IMG/VR virus record: IMGVR_UViG_2534682159_000017
Origin: a virus
Taxonomy: Duplodnaviria > Heunggongvirae > Uroviricota > Caudoviricetes
Direction: 5' to 3' (one strand)
DNA: 9,381 bases
Made by a program: the position numbers and the translations under genes. Position 1 is the stretch's first letter. The number at the start of each line of letters is the position of its first letter. Positions 1,243 to 9,099 of this stretch are shown piece after piece. Under the pieces are notes generated by a model, which saw only the letters and a list, made by a program, of their open reading frames with translations, searched no databases and was not told the DNA's origin.

Positions 1243-1319
1243 CTGTACAGAAAACCAGTAAAAACTACGAAAACCATTTAAAACCGTCGTATAATTGCAT
1301 CACATTTAACGACGAGGCC

Positions 1320-1571: not shown

Positions 1572-1580
1572 CAATCCTGA

Positions 1581-1606
1581 AAGCGGCAGAAATGCCGCTT
1601 TTTTTA
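1581..1606 (+). terminator. Rho-independent terminator
   Basis: Stem AGCGGCA (1582-1588), loop GAAA, stem TGCCGCT (1593-1599), followed by a run of 7-8 T. Confidence 0.8.
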
Positions 1607-1634
1607 TAAATCCCTTTCAAATCATCAATATAAA

Positions 1635-1674
1635 AAACGGTGTATACCGTTTAAAAACGGTGAGTACTGTTTTT
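1635..1674 (+). promoter_or_regulatory. Two tandem near-palindromic operator-like sites upstream of alpA
   Basis: Site 1 AAACGGT-GTAT-ACCGTTT (1635-1652) is a perfect 7-bp inverted repeat. Site 2 AAACGGT-GAGT-ACTGTTT (1655-1672) has one arm mismatch. Centres are about 20 bp apart (two helical turns), about 65-105 bp upstream of the alpA ATG. Confidence 0.5.
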
Positions 1675-1738
1675 CCCTGCATCCGATGATTTACCGTATT
1701 TCTCACCGGAATACACCGGATTAATGAGGTAAATCACG

Positions 1739-1945
1739 ATGGAAGCAATCAAAAAAGTCATCTTTCGCCAGGAAGTAAAAAAACTTATCCACATTAAGGC
1801 AGACAGCACGCTGCAAAGCATGATCAACGCCGGAGAATTCCCGCAGGGTTTTCGTGTCGGTTTGCGCCGTCGCGGATGGTATGAGGAAGACGTAATCGCA
1901 TGGATGAAAGAACGCGAACAAGAAGCGCGCGGAACGACCGCTTAA
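1739..1945 (+). CDS. alpA: AlpA-family phage transcriptional regulator (small MerR-like HTH, excisionase-like)
   Basis: 68-aa ORF; SD GAGG at 1726-1729, 9 nt before the ATG. Sequence pattern typical of AlpA/Vis-type prophage regulators (IHIKADSTLQSMINAGEFPQGFRVGLRRRGWYEEDVIAWM). Position directly after a P4-type integrase is canonical. Confidence 0.88.
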   Translation: MEAIKKVIFRQEVKKLIHIKADSTLQSMINAGEFPQGFRVGLRRRGWYEEDVIAWMKEREQEARGTTA

Positions 1946-2327: not shown

Positions 2328-2504
2328 TTATTCTTTTGATTCTATGCCGCGTTTATCCAACTCACGGCGCAAAAGCCTTTTTATCCATCCTGAGCGGTTA
2401 TCATCGCCATCTTCTTTCATGGCGATGCTTAAGCGTTCGAATAAGTCAGCATCAAGACGAAGCTGTACGGAAAACCTTTCCTTTTTGTTGTCATTGGTTG
2501 ACAT
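2328..2504 (-). CDS. Arc/MetJ-type ribbon-helix-helix DNA-binding protein (58 aa), candidate repressor
   Basis: Reverse-complement translation MSTNDNKKERFSVQLRLDADLFERLSIAMKEDGDDNRSGWIKRLLRRELDKRGIESKE. Beta-strand (RFSVQLRL), helix A, and helix B beginning with the RS/G motif follow the Arc/Mnt/CopG layout. SD GAGG lies 7 nt upstream of the ATG on the - strand. The 174-aa ORF in the track (2328-2852) is an upstream extension through promoter sequence and is not supported. Confidence 0.6.
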   Translation of the reverse strand: MSTNDNKKERFSVQLRLDADLFERLSIAMKEDGDDNRSGWIKRLLRRELDKRGIESKE

Positions 2505-2556
2505 TGTATACCTCGAGTATAATAATGGCCTTACGGTGACAATGTATACCAATGAC
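2490..2556. promoter_or_regulatory. Divergent promoter/operator region between the RHH gene (leftward) and the rep operon (rightward)
   Basis: + strand: -35 TTGACA (2498-2503), 17-bp spacer, -10 AATAAT (2521-2526); TATAAT also present at 2518-2523. Direct repeats TGACATTGTATACC (2499-2512) and TGACAATGTATACC (2537-2550) sit over the -35 and around the predicted +1. Inverted flanks GTCATTGG (2490-2497) and CCAATGAC (2549-2556). The RHH start codon is the complement of 2502-2504, inside the -35. Confidence 0.5.
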
Positions 2557-2630: not shown

Positions 2631-3191
2631 ATGGTTGCCGTAAATCATATACCACACCTTGTACACACACAAACGGCCTTTGTGTGGCGTTTTCTGGCCC
2701 TGAATATCGGAGAAAAAAACCAGTTGATCGCCAGTGTCGAAAATAGCTATGATTCCCGCGCACCTCATAAAACGGGTGCCGGGATTGGCGTCCTGGGCAA
2801 AACTGAAGCGCATAACACGCGCCCCGCGTGTTTTTTTGTGCCGCATAGTCACACCTTATCAATGGTGGGCTGTACGGGGGCGGAGCAATCCGCGCCGGTT
2901 TCTTCAGTGTCCGGTTACGCCAACCCTGTACAGTCCGCCACCAGCGAAATTGGCGTTTCCGGTGGCGGTTATCTTAACCACACTGAGGAGGCTGCCAACA
3001 TGGCTACTATCCCTACCCTTGTACATTCTCAAACCGCCTTTCTCTGGCGCTTTATCATCTTTGGCGCGTCAGAACATCAAATCATCCACGTAACCGCCTG
3101 GACGGAACGCGAAGCGCGTAACCGTTGCCCGTCCGGTTGTGTCGCTGTATTCGCCGCCCGTATTCGCCAGGGGGAAACCTATGCACAATAA
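2631..3191 (+). CDS. Hypothetical protein with internal tandem duplication (186 aa); first gene of the rightward operon
   Basis: Strong SD GAGGAG (2620-2625) 5 nt before the ATG; stop overlaps the next gene start (ATGCACAATAA). Two homologous segments (IPHLVHTQTAFVWRFLAL... and IPTLVHSQTAFLWRFIIF...) differ partly by synonymous third-position changes, which argues for coding. No family recognised. Confidence 0.5.
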   Translation: MVAVNHIPHLVHTQTAFVWRFLALNIGEKNQLIASVENSYDSRAPHKTGAGIGVLGKTEAHNTRPACFFVPHSHTLSMVGCTGAEQSAPVSSVSGYANPVQSATSEIGVSGGGYLNHTEEAANMATIPTLVHSQTAFLWRFIIFGASEHQIIHVTAWTEREARNRCPSGCVAVFAARIRQGETYAQ

Positions 3192-4176: not shown

Positions 4177-5582
4177 AACTGGCACCGAACGTAAAACGAT
4201 TACCGAAAGATAAATACACCGATGCGATTATTTTTGCGGGTATTGATGCTCATTCATTCGCAGAGCATTACATCATTGCACAGGCCAAAAAAGCAGGCGA
4301 TCCAGTCCCTCCCGTTTATCTGGGGCGTTATCAGTTAAGCGAACTGGATAACCTCCAGATTGTTGATGATGGGCGATACAGGGCGACGGTGATACGCGCC
4401 GGAAATATTGAAGAGCCGCAGCTGTTAACCATCGCCACGAAACTGGCGATCGCCGGAGTCCAGGAGGCGCGGCTACTTTCTGAAAATTTCGAATTGCTGG
4501 AGGAATGGAGCGACCAGCTTCCACGGCTTAGGGAGGCATGGGAACGCGGGGAAAGCCTGGTCATGAAAAAAATCCCCCAGCGAAAAACCACGCTACCGAT
4601 GAGCGTTGGATCTACCGGATACGACACACAGCTTGATTACGTGGTAAAGGGGATTATTCCGGCATCGTCGCTATGCAGCATATACGGGGCGAGCGGTTCC
4701 TATAAATCATTCCTTGCCGGATCGTGGGCGTGTCACGTTTCCACGGGCCGCCAGTGGGGAGGCCGCAGGGTGGCGCATGGTGCGGTTCTCTATGTGGTTG
4801 GTGAAGGCGGTATCGGCGTTCCGCGTCGTGTAAAAGCCTGGGAGGTTGTGCACGGTGAGCAGGTGAAAAATCTGTATCTGGTAAACCGTCCCATCTTTCC
4901 GGCGGTCCCGCTTGATGTTGATGAAATGGTTATCGCTGCCCGTCAGGTGGAGCGGGAAACGGGTAAACCTGTACGCATGATTATTCTGGATACGCTGGCG
5001 CGTTGCTTTGGTGGGAATGATGAAAATGATTCCCGTGATATGGGGGCGTTTATCCGTGGTTGTGACGAACTGAAACGGCGCACAGGGGCCACGGTGCTGG
5101 TGGTTCACCATTCCGGCAAGGATGAGACGAAAGGCGCGCGCGGTTCCAGTGCATTTCGTGCTTCGCTGGATGCTGAATACCGGATACGCAGAGAGGACGC
5201 AGGCAGCGAAGCGCTGGTTATCTCATGCACCAAAATGAAGGACGCGGAGGAACTCAAAGAAGCCGCATATGACTTACGCGTGGTGGAGCTTTTTACCGAC
5301 GCTGACGGGGAGTTAATCACGTCGCTGGTGGTGGTGGATAAGCCGCGCCCTCCCGTTGAACTGGAGCGCATCGAGGAGGCAGGGAACAAGACGGAGAATC
5401 ACGCCGCGCTATGGCAGTGCATCAGAACACGAACAGCACACGGGGAGGCGTGCACTATCGCCCTTCTCCGCGACGATATGAAAAAGCTGGGGTATGAGAT
5501 GAAGCACTTCCGGCGCTGGCTGTACAAGCTGGAAAATGATGGCGTAATCGTTATTGATGGTGATGACGTGCGCCCGCTGTAA
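4173..5582 (+). CDS. Replication initiator/helicase-like ATPase, RepA-like AAA_25 / RecA-fold family
   Basis: 469-aa ORF. P-loop region IYGASGSYKSFLAG, Walker-B-like MIILDTLARCFGG, and the family-typical LVVHHSGKD motif. Iteron array begins 4 bp after the stop. SD AGGGG 6 nt before the ATG. No primase domain recognised in the N-terminal 150 aa. Confidence 0.88.
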   Translation: MKLAPNVKRLPKDKYTDAIIFAGIDAHSFAEHYIIAQAKKAGDPVPPVYLGRYQLSELDNLQIVDDGRYRATVIRAGNIEEPQLLTIATKLAIAGVQEARLLSENFELLEEWSDQLPRLREAWERGESLVMKKIPQRKTTLPMSVGSTGYDTQLDYVVKGIIPASSLCSIYGASGSYKSFLAGSWACHVSTGRQWGGRRVAHGAVLYVVGEGGIGVPRRVKAWEVVHGEQVKNLYLVNRPIFPAVPLDVDEMVIAARQVERETGKPVRMIILDTLARCFGGNDENDSRDMGAFIRGCDELKRRTGATVLVVHHSGKDETKGARGSSAFRASLDAEYRIRREDAGSEALVISCTKMKDAEELKEAAYDLRVVELFTDADGELITSLVVVDKPRPPVELERIEEAGNKTENHAALWQCIRTRTAHGEACTIALLRDDMKKLGYEMKHFRRWLYKLENDGVIVIDGDDVRPL

Positions 5583-5585
5583 AAA

Positions 5586-5784
5586 GTGGGGAGTAAAAGT
5601 GGGGAGAGTGGGGAATTTAACAAAATTGAAACATAATTACCCACTTTCCCACCTGTATACACCCAAAAAAGTGGGGAGTAAAAAACATATTGAAAAACAT
5701 AACGTTAGAATCACAAAAAAAAGAGGTGGGGAGACGGTGGGTAATTTCAAAAAGTGGGGAGCAAAAGTGGGGAGTAGTGGGGAA
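5586..5784. repeat. Iteron array / replication origin
   Basis: GTGGGGA(G/A) direct repeats start at 5586, 5599, 5609, 5671, 5726, 5754, 5767 and 5777, with a degenerate GGTGGGTA at 5737. They form two clusters flanking an AT-rich segment (about 5615-5725) that holds inverted partial copies (CCCACTT 5640-5646, CCCACC 5648-5653). Confidence 0.85.
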
Positions 5785-6041
5785 TGAACAGAAAAACCAG
5801 AGATAAGACAGCGCCAAAATATAAAGCGTTAGACATGACAGAGCACGCCTTAAAGGTGGCAATCAGAACGATAGACCGCCACGCGGGGGAAGGATACGCG
5901 AAGGAACATCCCGACCTGATAAGCGCATTCATGACCACAGCAGCGGCAAACTTTGCCACGCTGACAGAACGGGAGATTGCCGAAGCGGAACAGGTAACAA
6001 CCATCAACGTAAAAACCGGAGAGTCAGGCGATGATACATGA
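5784..6041 (+). CDS. Hypothetical protein (85 aa)
   Basis: ORF begins inside the last iteron and overlaps the following gene by 11 nt. No good SD spacing; plausible globular composition; no recognisable family. Confidence 0.35.
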   Translation: MNRKTRDKTAPKYKALDMTEHALKVAIRTIDRHAGEGYAKEHPDLISAFMTTAAANFATLTEREIAEAEQVTTINVKTGESGDDT

Positions 6042-6303
6042 CCGCATAGCGGAGGAACTCGAGGCGAAAGGATTTTACCGGAGGGCGGCGGCGCGATGGG
6101 GTGAAGTCATGCAGCTGGTGGAGACAGACAAGGAACGGCATCAGGTTACGATGCGACGGCTGGAATGTTCCAGGAAAGCACAGAGGCAACCGGAGCCGCC
6201 GGATAACTTCGGAGACCTGAGAAAGGCAGTAGATCGCACTTATGCTGAAATGGGTATAGATGGTGTAAGCGATGAAATATGGTGTAATTACCAGGACAGC
6301 TAA
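6031..6303 (+). CDS. PerC-family transcriptional regulator-like protein (90 aa)
   Basis: SD GGAG (6018-6021) 9 nt before the ATG. N-terminal IAEELEAKGFYRRAAARWGEVM matches the conserved LE-x-KG-x-RRAA-x-W signature I associate with PerC/Pch proteins. Followed by a terminator. Confidence 0.7.
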   Translation: MIHDRIAEELEAKGFYRRAAARWGEVMQLVETDKERHQVTMRRLECSRKAQRQPEPPDNFGDLRKAVDRTYAEMGIDGVSDEIWCNYQDS

Positions 6304-6309
6304 TCACAC

Positions 6310-6332
6310 AGCCGGAGCAATCCGGCTTTTTT
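6310..6332 (+). terminator. Rho-independent terminator
   Basis: Stem AGCCGGA (6310-6316), loop GCAA, stem TCCGGCT (6321-6327), then TTTTTT. Confidence 0.8.
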
Positions 6333-6406
6333 GCGGGTCCTCCTGGTGGGGTGGGCCTGAACACGGGGCGGGCGGGCGCGGAAAAAGGCGCATTTTTTGA
6401 TTTTTA
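6327..6406 (+). repeat. Conserved ~80-bp GC-rich box, copy A (TTTTTTGCGGGTCCTCCTGGTGGGGTGGGCCTGAACACGGGGCGGGCGG...GCATTTTTTGATTTT)
   Basis: Near-identical to 8865-8943 apart from 2-3 small indels or substitutions. Begins in the T-tract of the terminator. Ends in a second short GC hairpin (GCGC-loop-GCGC) plus a T-run. Confidence 0.9.
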
Positions 6407-6761
6407 TGGCACCATCACCACCACTATAAGTTATTGATATATTGAAGAATAAAAATTTTTAGTGTCGAATCAGGTTGTTTTTTGTTCATCACTGGATCGT
6501 TCCCGAAAGCATTTACAAAAAAACAGGCGCAAAAAAAGCGCCCCCGATTGCTGTTACCGGAGGCGCTTTTACACGACAAAGGAGTTTTTATCGCCAGGAT
6601 GACGAGTCTTAATATTGCTTCAATAGCAAAAATGCGTCAATGGCTTTGCCTCTCTGAGAATAATCAGAAAAATCATAATCTGATTTTATGGTAGAAAATG
6701 ATTTATCTATTACTTTTATCGATCAATAATGATGCCCGTTAATCAAAACGGAGGCGGATTT

Positions 6762-6956
6762 ATGCCAGAGAACAACACCAGAAAGCCGGATAAAAGTGCC
6801 ACGGTACACATAGACGCCGGAACTATGGAGAAGATCGAACGCTATCAGCAGTTCATCAAAGATAATCACCCGGGTATGCCAGTGCCCACGAAAGGACAAA
6901 TCACACGCAGCGCGGTTGAATACTGGTACAGGGCAACGTTAGGAGCCTGGCTATGA
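6762..6956 (+). CDS. Small protein with a possible ribbon-helix-helix-like fold, translationally coupled to the protease-capsid gene (64 aa from the ATG at 6762; the track ORF begins at 6729)
   Basis: SD GGAGG (6750-6754) 7 nt before the ATG at 6762. Stop overlaps the capsid-gene start (ATGA at 6953-6956). Fold call rests only on the pattern SATVHIDAGTMEKIERY...GQITRSAVEYWY and is weak. Confidence 0.5.
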   Translation: MPENNTRKPDKSATVHIDAGTMEKIERYQQFIKDNHPGMPVPTKGQITRSAVEYWYRATLGAWL

Positions 6957-8842
6957 AAACATGGTTTTCCATTAAGGCTATGGCAGATGTTGTACATGTG
7001 CGCATTTATGACGAGATCGGCGGGTACGGTGTAAAAGCATCGGCACTTACTGACGAGATCAACGCGTGTGGTAATGCGTCTGAAATCCATCTTCGCATCC
7101 ATTCACCTGGTGGCGACATCTTTGAAGGGCTGGCTATCTATAACGCTCTGAAAAATCATCCGGCAAAAAAAATCGTACACATTGAAGGCATGGCGGCTTC
7201 TATGGCGTCGTTTATTGCCATGTGTGGAGATCACATCGTTATGCCTGAAAACGCGATGATGATGATACATGCCCCCCGTGGTGTTACTGCCGGAGTGTCG
7301 GGCGACGTTCGCCGCTTTGCTGATCTGATGGACAAGCTGGGCGACACGATGGCAGAAACCTATGCCGGAAGAACGGGCAGGAGCAAACAGGAGATCACCT
7401 CAATGATGGAGGCGGAAACCTGGATGGATGGCAATGAGTGTAAGGCTAACGGCTTCGCAGATGAGGTTATACCCGCGATTACAGCAATGGCCCGAATTGA
7501 ATCAAAACGAATCGGAGATTTTTCAAATATGCCGGAAAAAATTAAAAGCATGATCAGCCAGAAAACTGGCAGTGGCGAACAGGAACGACTTAACGGAATC
7601 CGTGAATTGTTTGGCACCTTCAACGGAAGATATAACGACCTGGCTATAAGTTGTCTTGCGGATTCAGAATGTAGCGTTGAGAATGCACGCGAACGCCTTT
7701 TACTCGCTATGGGTAAAGAATCAACGCCAACAAACAAAACCACCCCCGCAAATCTTTACTACGCGTACACGGATAACGGCAATATAACTGGCGATGCCAT
7801 GCGTCAGGGGCTTAATGCGCGTCTTGGTCACGAACGGGCCGAACGCGGTAATCCTTACGCCATGATGAGTCTTTTCGATATGGCACAGGCATCATTAACC
7901 CATCGTGGTATAAGCACGGGCAGCTACAGCACACGCTCGCAGATAGTAAACGCGGCATTCACCCACAGCAGCAGCGATTTTACCGATATCCTTGCTGGTG
8001 GCGCTGAAAAATCAGTGCTTGCAGGCTGGGAGCACAGCGGCGAAACATTCCGCCAGTGGACGAAAAAAGGTTCCCTTTCAAACTTCCGGGAAGCCCGCCG
8101 CGTTGGTATGAATGGCTTCTCAACGTTAAACAAAGTGCCGGAAGGGGCAGAATATAAATACATCACCACCAGCGATCGCGGTGAACCCATCGCGCTGGCT
8201 ACTTACGGGAATATTTTCAGCATTACCCGCCAGGCGATAATCAATGATGACCTTGATCAGTTATCAACGGTGCCAATGGCTATGGGCCGTGCAGCATCAA
8301 GAACGGTGGGAAATCTGGTTAATCTGGTGCTTACAGGCAACGTAAAACTTTCTGACGGAATAACGCTGTTTGACAAAAAACACAGCAACCTGATTGAAGC
8401 AGGACTGACAACACCGGGACTTAGTGCAGCACGTCACCTGATGCGCACACAGAAGGACAAAAATGGCGAAGTGCTGAATATTGCGCCTAAATTCCTTTTA
8501 GTTCCGGCAGCACTGGAAGATCGCGCGTTGCAGATGATTAACTCAACCGCACCTTTCGGGGCTGATAAAAACAGCGGGATCTTTAACCCGTACCACAAGC
8601 TACTTGATATCATCGTCGATCCCCGCCTTGATGATATCAGCGAAAAACAATGGTACATGCTTTCCGCACAGGGAACGGACACAATCGAGGTGGCTTATCT
8701 TGATGGCAATGACGAGCCTTACCTTGAACAGCAGGAAGGTTTTATCGTTGACGGCGTGGCCTGGAAAGTCCGTATTGATGCAGGTGTGGCAGCTCTGGAT
8801 TATCGCGGTATGGTCAAATCAGGCGGTACCGATTCACTATGA
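6953..8842 (+). CDS. Fusion protein: ClpP-like (S14) prohead serine protease, N-terminal, joined to an HK97-fold phage major capsid protein, C-terminal
   Basis: 629-aa ORF; SD AGGAG (6941-6945) 7 nt before the ATG. ClpP active-site signatures GMAASMAS (Ser83, codon 7199-7201) and MMMIHAPRG (His106) match ClpP GQAASMG and MIHQP. The C-terminal ~350 aa have capsid-like composition and length. Terminator immediately downstream. Confidence 0.88.
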   Translation: MKTWFSIKAMADVVHVRIYDEIGGYGVKASALTDEINACGNASEIHLRIHSPGGDIFEGLAIYNALKNHPAKKIVHIEGMAASMASFIAMCGDHIVMPENAMMMIHAPRGVTAGVSGDVRRFADLMDKLGDTMAETYAGRTGRSKQEITSMMEAETWMDGNECKANGFADEVIPAITAMARIESKRIGDFSNMPEKIKSMISQKTGSGEQERLNGIRELFGTFNGRYNDLAISCLADSECSVENARERLLLAMGKESTPTNKTTPANLYYAYTDNGNITGDAMRQGLNARLGHERAERGNPYAMMSLFDMAQASLTHRGISTGSYSTRSQIVNAAFTHSSSDFTDILAGGAEKSVLAGWEHSGETFRQWTKKGSLSNFREARRVGMNGFSTLNKVPEGAEYKYITTSDRGEPIALATYGNIFSITRQAIINDDLDQLSTVPMAMGRAASRTVGNLVNLVLTGNVKLSDGITLFDKKHSNLIEAGLTTPGLSAARHLMRTQKDKNGEVLNIAPKFLLVPAALEDRALQMINSTAPFGADKNSGIFNPYHKLLDIIVDPRLDDISEKQWYMLSAQGTDTIEVAYLDGNDEPYLEQQEGFIVDGVAWKVRIDAGVAALDYRGMVKSGGTDSL

Positions 8843-8846
8843 CAAC

Positions 8847-8870
8847 AAGGCGGCACCAGCCGCCTTTTTT
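8847..8870 (+). terminator. Rho-independent terminator
   Basis: Stem AAGGCGGC (8847-8854), loop ACCA, stem GCCGCCTT (8859-8866), T-run 8865-8870; 5 bp after the capsid stop. Confidence 0.8.
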
Positions 8871-8943
8871 GCGGGTCCTCCTGGTGGGGTGGGCCTGAAC
8901 ACGGGGCGGGCGGCGCGGAAAAAAACGCATTTTTTTGATTTTA
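8865..8943 (+). repeat. Conserved ~80-bp GC-rich box, copy B
   Basis: Direct repeat of 6327-6406, in the same position relative to a terminator. Confidence 0.9.
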
Positions 8944-9099
8944 TCGTCATCATCATCATGTTCGTAAGTGATTGTTTTTAATTGCTTTGATGTAAAAAAG
9001 ATGATGAAGAAGGTTGTTTTTTGTTCGACATCTTTTAGCGTGACAGATTCTTTACAAAAAATCTGAGCTTGTTTTCTTCACCAGCGCGATGGGGGCACA

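Follow-up and report, generated by a model that had tools for sequence, protein, structure and literature searches.

Two palindromes stand in tandem upstream of alpA, the presumed switch gene of a phage satellite, and the question that this locus raises is which protein reads them and whether that protein also acts elsewhere in the element. The first-pass annotation of the stretch of DNA analysed here (9,381 nt at its full length, hereafter the window) had proposed that a single DNA-binding protein, recognising an 8-mer core (TGTATACC), couples the expression of alpA to the rep operon and possibly to the firing of the origin. How helper phages switch on Gram-negative satellites of this type is still open, and the literature that we searched does not define the cis-elements of the alpA promoter, the binding site of AlpA or the inducer.

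The window covers most of an E. coli phage satellite

The window is almost the whole of an E. coli phage satellite of ~9.7-10 kb, of the phage-inducible chromosomal island (PICI) type, which is inserted at tRNA-Pro (Table 1). In E. coli the insertion lies next to yejM, and the repeated core of the attachment site was seen in island L027. Two of the features by which Gram-negative PICIs are recognised were found here: an integrase with its expected domains is encoded at the left end, beside the att site and in the same orientation as alpA, and a replication protein (AAA_25 helicase) is followed by an iteron origin, all within ~9.7 kb. This int-alpA-rep-ori layout is the organisation described for Gram-negative phage-inducible chromosomal islands (PMC6092414, PMC10111431).

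A small orphan gene separates int from alpA, and the intrinsic terminator that follows it is predicted to isolate alpA from transcription coming from upstream. The RHH-type gene further downstream owes its assignment to weak profile matches (NikR N-terminal and YlcI_YnfO_N), and it is divergent from the promoter of the rightward operon. With the isrK RNA, the C4 RNA and the icd-like gene at its head, that operon begins with an antisense-RNA immunity module of the P1/P7/P4 type; the two RNAs fall within an ORF (2631-3000) that carries the annotation 'ash family'. A 35-nt hairpin at 2568-2602 (AAAGCCCGC...GCGGGCTT, -15.3 kcal/mol) is found in the leader of the same operon and reads as a terminator on the minus strand. 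Islands with other RHH alleles have similar hairpins at this position, some of them with different stem sequences. The origin itself holds eight iterons of the AGTGGGGA type, arranged in three clusters 83-85 bp apart around an AT-rich centre.

Table 1. Features of the window, and the boxes of the att arms, that are discussed in the text (strand given where assigned).
Feature	Position	Strand	Remarks
P4-type integrase gene (int)	1-1242
TATAAT of the orphan gene	1290-1295		the gene's own
Small orphan gene, 76 aa	1341-1571	+	between int and alpA
Intrinsic terminator	1579-1605	+	after the 76-aa gene; -15.4 kcal/mol, z -4.95, then U7
Whole palindromic element	1633-1674		A-tract, four alternating 7-bp boxes (two tandem palindromes), T-tract
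Palindrome 1	1635-1652		AAACGGT-GTAT-ACCGTTT, 0 mismatches
Palindrome 2	1655-1672		AAACGGT-GAGT-ACTGTTT, 1 mismatch
Putative -10 of the alpA promoter	1692-1697	+	TACCGT, inside block TTTACCGTATTT
Three direct boxes	1693-1721	+	ACCGTAT 1693, ACCGGAA 1705, ACCGGAT 1715; spacings 12 and 10
alpA, 68-aa winged-helix regulator	1739-1945	+	ribosome-binding site GAGG 1726-1729
RHH-type gene, 58 aa	2328-2504	-	relatives annotated YlcI/YnfO family
Rightward-operon promoter	2498-2526	+	TTGACA-17-AATAAT
RHH candidate operator O1	2499-2512		TGACATTGTATACC, over the -35 and spacer of the rightward promoter
RHH candidate operator O2	2537-2550		TGACAATGTATACC, just downstream of the rightward start site, over the leftward -35
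isrK RNA	2760-2836	+	Rfam, 66 bits
C4 antisense RNA	2858-2945	+	Rfam, 77.6 bits
icd-like gene	3000-3191		follows the antisense RNAs
DUF4222 gene and RepA-type helicase gene			rightward operon, before the origin
Origin iterons	5581-5793		AAAGTGGGGA
TGTATACA	5654-5661		one-mismatch relative of TGTATACC; dyad centre of two inverted origin iterons
PerC-family transcriptional activator gene	6031-6303		E=3e-43
ClpP-protease/major-capsid fusion gene	6953-8842
Att-arm (C)ACCGGA boxes	L001 49-74, 130-175; L027 388-490, 9790-9900		outside the window

The palindromes upstream of alpA are conserved in their half-sites and in their position

The first-pass annotation had described two inverted repeats, two helical turns apart, upstream of alpA; both are present, and they show the conservation of operator-like sites. 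At up to two mismatches the palindrome pattern matches these two sites and no other in the window, the expectation from shuffled sequences is 0.06, and two or more matches arose in none of 200 shuffles; the pair is far beyond chance. The centres of the palindromes are 20 bp apart. The four boxes start at 1635, 1646, 1655 and 1666, at spacings of 11, 9 and 11 bp or about one box per helical turn, and the element thereby contains the four or more turn-spaced boxes that are typical of the arrays bound by Cox and Apl (see below).

Related loci from E. coli genomes and viral contigs numbered 66, which correspond to 26 distinct variants of 130 nt, and half-sites and spacers were counted in the distinct island contexts with both palindromes, of which there are 61. 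The right half of palindrome 1 reads ACCGTTT in 59 of the 61 islands, and its left half occurs as AAACGGT in 30 and as AAACAGT in 28. Palindrome 2 begins with AAACGGT in 60 of 61 and ends with ACTGTTT in all 61. The spacers are another matter: seven versions are found in palindrome 1 (GTAT, GGGT, GAGT, GGAT, ACCC, TCTA and TATA) and four in palindrome 2. From palindrome 2 to the block TACCGTATTT there are always 19 nt, filled by nine different sequences, and the flanks, the upstream terminator included, have strongly diverged between two sublineages. Taken together, the invariant half-sites, the free spacers and the fixed 19 nt indicate that a factor recognises the sequence of the four boxes, which stand at a set distance from the core promoter. 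We read the palindromes as a real, conserved regulatory array and as candidate protein-binding sites.

The tandem element is a property of this island family. Searches of viral contigs returned the family and three unrelated chance matches, and a single palindrome gave chance matches only, mostly inside genes; the deposited phage collection contains no copy of the tandem element. Between positions 1600 and 1740 there is no match to the LexA box (CTGT-N8-ACAG) or to the P2 Ogr/P4 Delta site (TGT-N12-ACA).

Copy number of the repeats varies among the islands. Exactly one 20-bp palindrome unit has been lost from islands L053 and L054, and island L031 has gained an extra 10-bp CACCGGAATA unit, a third copy; these losses and this gain indicate that the copy number of both repeat types varies in nature. 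A database protein (P0023) consists of the N-terminal part of the orphan gene product fused to AlpA, which indicates a natural deletion that removed the terminator together with the palindromes.

A nucleic acid structure is a very unlikely explanation of the four boxes

The same four boxes could be conserved as an RNA or DNA structure, that is, as one long hairpin followed by a run of U, which would serve as a second and possibly bidirectional terminator or attenuator, placed between the orphan gene and alpA. Predicted folding is favourable on the plus strand (-16.1 kcal/mol, z -3.8, then U5) and also on the minus strand (-11.3 kcal/mol, then U6), and a terminator scan flags sub-hairpins within the element. 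Across the variants, 92.7% of cells are paired in the nested model; pair 25-54 is A-U in some of them and G-U in others. Wobble pairs abound in the stem, which also takes in part of the U-run. However, it is the sequence that is conserved and not the pairing. All departures from pairing are uncompensated in the two-hairpin model; spacer positions in the middle of the stem are unpaired in ~40% of the variants; and the sole pair of the nested model that has changed on both sides is confined to one sublineage and is, in our reading, compatible with a single mutational event. In addition, a strong terminator already stands about 30-60 nt upstream, and there the sequence has turned over while the structure was kept. 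We consider a terminator or attenuator role for the boxes very unlikely.

The 8-mer shared with the RHH promoter appears to be a coincidence

The three copies of TGTATACC listed in the first-pass annotation (1641-1648, 2505-2512 and 2543-2550) were all confirmed, and the 8-mer occurs nowhere else in the window. Its rarity, which had been taken as a sign of common function, holds up only in part. The expectation is 0.15, and three copies appeared in 0 of 200 shuffles; however, the 8-mer was picked after looking, in a window in which 349 distinct 8-mers occur at least three times, and the copies at 2505 and 2543 are not independent, being parts of one 14-bp direct repeat, TGACAWTGTATACC. Moreover, when the 42-nt element and the 146-nt RHH region were both shuffled, they had an 8-mer in common in 13% of trials. 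Because of the post hoc choice and this frequency in shuffles, the 8-mer shared by the alpA site and the RHH promoter is not beyond chance. The copy claimed for the origin is present as a sequence, but TGTATACA is a one-mismatch match and one of 11 such matches in the window (14 matches in total, against 4.6 expected), and we rejected it as a part of the system.

The composition of the 8-mer at alpA is instructive: T and ACC come from the conserved half-sites of palindrome 1, and GTAT comes from the variable N4 spacer. TGTATACC is found at alpA in 28 of the 61 islands and is absent from the other 33, and in 26 of the 28 no further copy lies within -1.7 to +2.5 kb. The first-pass annotation had made its proposal depend on conservation of the motif at the same positions in homologous islands, and TGTATACC is not conserved in this way.

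At the RHH promoter, the repeats that contain TGTATACC are good candidates for RHH operators. O2 (AATGTATACCA) is kept in all three islands that carry the RHH allele of the window. O1 coincides with the spacer between the ribosome-binding site and the start codon of the RHH gene and overlaps both of these; it is not conserved, the closest RHH alleles (98% and 89% identical) reading GATAAACC and ATTAAACC. In each group of RHH alleles the divergent promoter carries a pair of repeats at the same two places, with a sequence peculiar to the group (TGACAWTGTATACC in the group of the window, ACATGGTAATTACC in the second, GTGTATTGACAC in the third and GTACGTACGTAAC, inverted, in the fourth), which supports the repeats as RHH operators. 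In its place on a divergent promoter beside a small RHH-like gene, the TGACAWTGTATACC pair (2499-2550) resembles the operators of Arc, Mnt and CopG type, and like operators of the immunity type it differs from one RHH allele to the next. This likeness is limited to the RHH promoter and does not extend to the alpA palindromes.

The alpA palindromes follow no such rule. They are the same in islands whose RHH operators are of four other types and in islands in which no RHH gene was detected; in one of the latter (L003) tblastn finds no RHH homologue, and the palindromes are kept. Island L016 presents the converse case, with an RHH protein 89% identical to that of the window, a AATGTATACCA operator and an unrelated alpA upstream region that lacks TGTATACC. 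An operator that changes with the repressor allele is thus what is seen at the RHH promoter and not what is seen at alpA. Nor does the extended operator recur: at up to three mismatches the 14-bp TGACAWTGTATACC matches only at 2499 and 2537, and neither the alpA site nor the origin contains it.

For a single protein, RHH or AlpA, that would read the TGTATACC core at alpA, the RHH promoter and the origin and couple all three, there remain three exact copies that all fall in regulatory regions. Against this, L016, the independent variation of the spacer and the allele-specific RHH operators leave the coupling unsupported, and we regard it as barely credible: the core is mostly spacer and varies independently of RHH. 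The occurrence of TGTATACC at both alpA and the RHH promoter is in our view a coincidence that stems from the non-conserved spacer of palindrome 1, and as far as sequence comparison can tell the RHH protein has no detectable link to alpA or to the origin. With the alpA switch separated from the RHH/antisense-RNA immunity module, experiments need not be built on a spurious shared motif.

The palindromes lie at a putative alpA promoter that lacks a -35 element

A promoter scan found no consensus sigma-70 promoter on the plus strand upstream of alpA. The putative -10 lies inside a block, TTTACCGTATTT, that is invariant in the 66 loci, and relative to it the centres of the palindromes would fall near -41 and -61 of a weak promoter without a -35, with palindrome 2 overlapping the -35 position. 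Such a placement would be the geometry of an activator-dependent promoter.

Closer to the gene, the last two of the three direct boxes form CACCGGA-N3-CACCGGA (1704-1720) just before the alpA ribosome-binding site. We regard the three as candidate AlpA boxes of the excisionase type. Of the 13 places in the window that match ACCG[GT]WW, a motif that was defined after looking, six lie in the 96 nt before alpA, where 0.13 are expected. The arrangement CCGG-N6-CCGG precedes alpA in 6 of 12 distant loci, and island L015 keeps a one-base variant of it. The four 7-bp boxes (inferred to lie at about -41/-61) and the three phased boxes offer a defined, mutable target in a widespread family of E. coli islands.

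Related boxes occur in both att arms

Phased (C)ACCGGA boxes at 10-bp intervals are also found in the att arms, with three next to the att core, more of them further out in the P' arm and others in the P arm. The lineage of the window has ACCGGA boxes in both attL and attR; its arms carry ACCGGA or ACCGAA, not ACCGTTT, and ACCGTTT/ACTGTTT takes the middle place in the P'-arm triplet only in other lineages. These CGG boxes persist across islands whose AlpA proteins are 52-100% identical.

A second kind of repeat lies within the 110 nt that precede int (islands L001-L024), as two direct and two inverted copies, and is also present in the other arm (L027 9975-9997). Its sequence, TAGTTATACG, GGGACTACA or TAGGCATA, switches together with the N-terminal domain of Int. 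The comparison of L017/L018 with L020/L021 separates the two kinds of site, since the Int repeats change from TAGTTATACG to GGGACTACA and the CGG boxes and AlpA remain unchanged. The CGG boxes follow the allele of the presumed excision factor, AlpA, and not the arm-binding domain of Int, a relation that is correlative; EcCICFT073 has both another AlpA allele and other boxes (ACAAC). We interpret the int-side repeats as probable arm-type sites of the integrase, their covariation with its arm-binding domain being clear, and the CGG boxes of the att arms as probable sites of AlpA acting as excision factor. The palindromes were also considered as integrase arm sites, and this was rejected; the att core is 1.6 kb away, and the repeats of arm type, which follow the N-terminal domain of Int, differ from the palindromes in sequence.

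AlpA is the most likely binder of the palindromes

Proteins identical or nearly identical to the 68-aa product of alpA are named AlpA family. The match to the AlpA profile PF05930 (E=0.003, 17.8 bits) is below the curated cut-off of 21 bits, and there is no NCBIfam match. The best fold matches of its structural model (pLDDT 69) are excisionases, MerR and Xis, with E-values that are not significant. The AlpA antiterminator of Pseudomonas aeruginosa, which has more than 140 residues, is Q-like and binds GGGACG between -35 and -10 (PMC9371919), was set aside as a namesake only on the grounds of length and description; unlike it, the island protein is predicted to be a winged helix of the excisionase/MerR type.

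The boxes bound by recombination directionality factors may face either way and follow one another at one helical turn, and such factors are able to activate the promoter of a satellite (PMC3936717, PMC7498355). Thus P2 Cox activates P4 PLL, the promoter that expresses the alpA homologue vis (PMC3936717, PMC7498355, PMC10111431). P2 Cox and 186 Apl are alike with what we propose here in that they are small winged-helix excision factors that bind short boxes, arrayed at intervals of one helical turn with no fixed orientation, both at att and at a promoter (P4 PLL for Cox, pR-pL for Apl). Unlike the presumed binder of the island element, which would be encoded by the satellite, Cox is encoded by the helper, and its box (TTAAAG/CNCA) is present in six or more copies, whereas the island element consists of four strictly alternating boxes that make up two perfect or near-perfect palindromes. 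In E. coli satellites AlpA is reported to activate its own promoter, and helper phages to induce alpA (PMC6092414, PMC11773190).

In the reading that we prefer, and to which we give an even chance, the promoter of alpA, the switch gene of the satellite, is under the control of the array, whose four boxes read ACCGTTT or the complement of this. AlpA itself would bind the palindrome boxes together with the direct boxes ACCGTAT, ACCGGAA and ACCGGAT in the leader, its binding would result in positive autoregulation, as reported for AlpA elsewhere, and at the same family of boxes in both att arms it would act as excision factor. The related boxes at att, the behaviour of Cox and Apl, the reported autoactivation and the excisionase-like model make AlpA our first choice, and in our judgement the most likely candidate, as the binder of the palindromes.

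Several points count against AlpA. First, the palindromes are missing from distant islands in which the AlpA helix-turn-helix is conserved: in 12 distant alpA loci (AlpA 52-57% identical) both the palindromes and the orphan gene are absent. Unrelated, lineage-specific repeats are found upstream of alpA in these islands, and since they are unlike the att-arm boxes of the same islands, the upstream repeats may bind a different, lineage-specific factor. Second, the ACCG core that the boxes have in common is short and was recognised after looking, and the att-arm boxes of the window's lineage are not ACCGTTT. The constant company of the orphan gene, the long hairpin into which the four boxes can fold and the modest confidence of the AlpA model weigh on the same side. 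Covariation of AlpA with the half-sites was tried in the distant loci and given up, because the palindromes are absent there and AlpA and the orphan protein are not separable by this comparison.

A resident repressor and a helper factor are less likely binders

The palindromes might instead be the helper-responsive switch long sought in Gram-negative satellites, operated either through the orphan protein as a resident repressor or directly by a protein of the helper phage, a reading that we consider unlikely.

If the resident protein is the binder, the palindromes would be operators of the 76-aa orphan product, which would regulate alpA, most simply as a repressor positioned over the -35 region, and the helper phage would need to relieve this repression. 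The orphan gene and the palindromes occur together in 66 of 66 loci, in addition to their joint absence from the 12 distant ones, but this co-occurrence may merely reflect adjacency, the two being ~60 bp apart. Purifying selection acts on the protein, which is 65-72% identical from one sublineage to the other and includes a core that does not vary; its tail, GGRPKKW, is basic, and it is modelled with fair confidence as three helices (pLDDT 80). The gene is accompanied by a TATAAT and a terminator of its own. The corresponding slot between int and alpA carries, in other satellites, excision or regulatory genes of unknown function (PMC10803314). Searches of Pfam, NCBIfam and solved structures returned no match to the protein, and fold searches gave weak, generic helical matches. 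Against repression stands the promoter itself, which without a -35 seems to need activation. On balance we consider it quite unlikely that the orphan protein is the regulator that binds the palindromes.

An orphan repressor, if it did prove to be real, would correspond in function to Stl, the repressor type of Gram-positive islands. To our knowledge, Stl-type repressors have not been found in Gram-negative islands.

Alternatively, a protein of the helper phage or of the host could bind the palindromes as two dimers and switch alpA on, with AlpA acting only through the proximal ACCGG boxes. This would account for the finding that the induction of alpA by helper phages does not require SOS and depends only in part on AlpA (PMC6092414, PMC11773190). 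It would also suit the distant lineages, each of which has its own set of repeats before alpA, unrelated to the att-arm boxes, as would be expected for a trans factor specific to the lineage or to the helper; in one of these islands (L024) no gene separates int from alpA. However, one would expect a phage that encodes such an activator to carry binding sites for it too, and neither the deposited phage collection nor the viral contigs outside the island family yielded the tandem element. Phage 1720a-02, a candidate helper that has the same packaging-region DNA and the same capsid type as the island, has no palindrome site in any intergenic region; the gene next to its int is DinI-like and is not a relative of AlpA or Xis. 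Direct binding by a helper or host factor is in our estimation an unlikely explanation. Were the helper-switch reading true, the lineage-specific repeats upstream of alpA would be determinants of helper specificity.

The element belongs to a known kind of site

Among the closest described counterparts is the alpA promoter of EcCICFT073 and EcCIMP1, where a regulatory region likewise stands directly before alpA in a satellite of int-alpA-rep-ori layout. EcCICFT073 also has repeated boxes both before alpA and in the att arms. It differs from the present island in having another AlpA allele and ACAAC direct repeats at 10-bp spacing, and it has no palindromes. In its sequence (L237 5188-5247, 5440-5480), six ACAAC(G) repeats at 10-bp spacing come right after int, GACACAA repeats lie just before alpA, and related repeats are present in both att arms. 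The alpA element of the window is a site of a known kind that has not been described before, and is otherwise an ordinary regulatory site of a mobile element of known kind.

At the right side of the island, a sequence of ~180 nt is present twice (6310-6487 and 8848-9026), on either side of the ClpP-capsid gene. Two copies are unique to the present island among 48 related islands. The repeat is ~88-95% identical to non-coding DNA of Stx-converting phages, and its counterpart in phage 1720a-02 lies between the lysis genes and a small-terminase-like gene. Within it, GGGGCGGGCGGCGCGG resembles lambda cosN. The repeat is a candidate for a packaging (cos) site of the helper or for a late regulatory region. 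Phage 1720a-02 also carries a 'Clp protease-like' gene of similar size to the ClpP-capsid gene. This likeness and the two copies of Stx-phage DNA, which in the phage comes from upstream of the terminase genes, are indirect signs that a helper phage may induce, package and transfer the island. After the last gene of the island, just past the right end of the window (L027 9685-9735), there are five GTGAC(A) direct repeats at an exact spacing of 10 bp.
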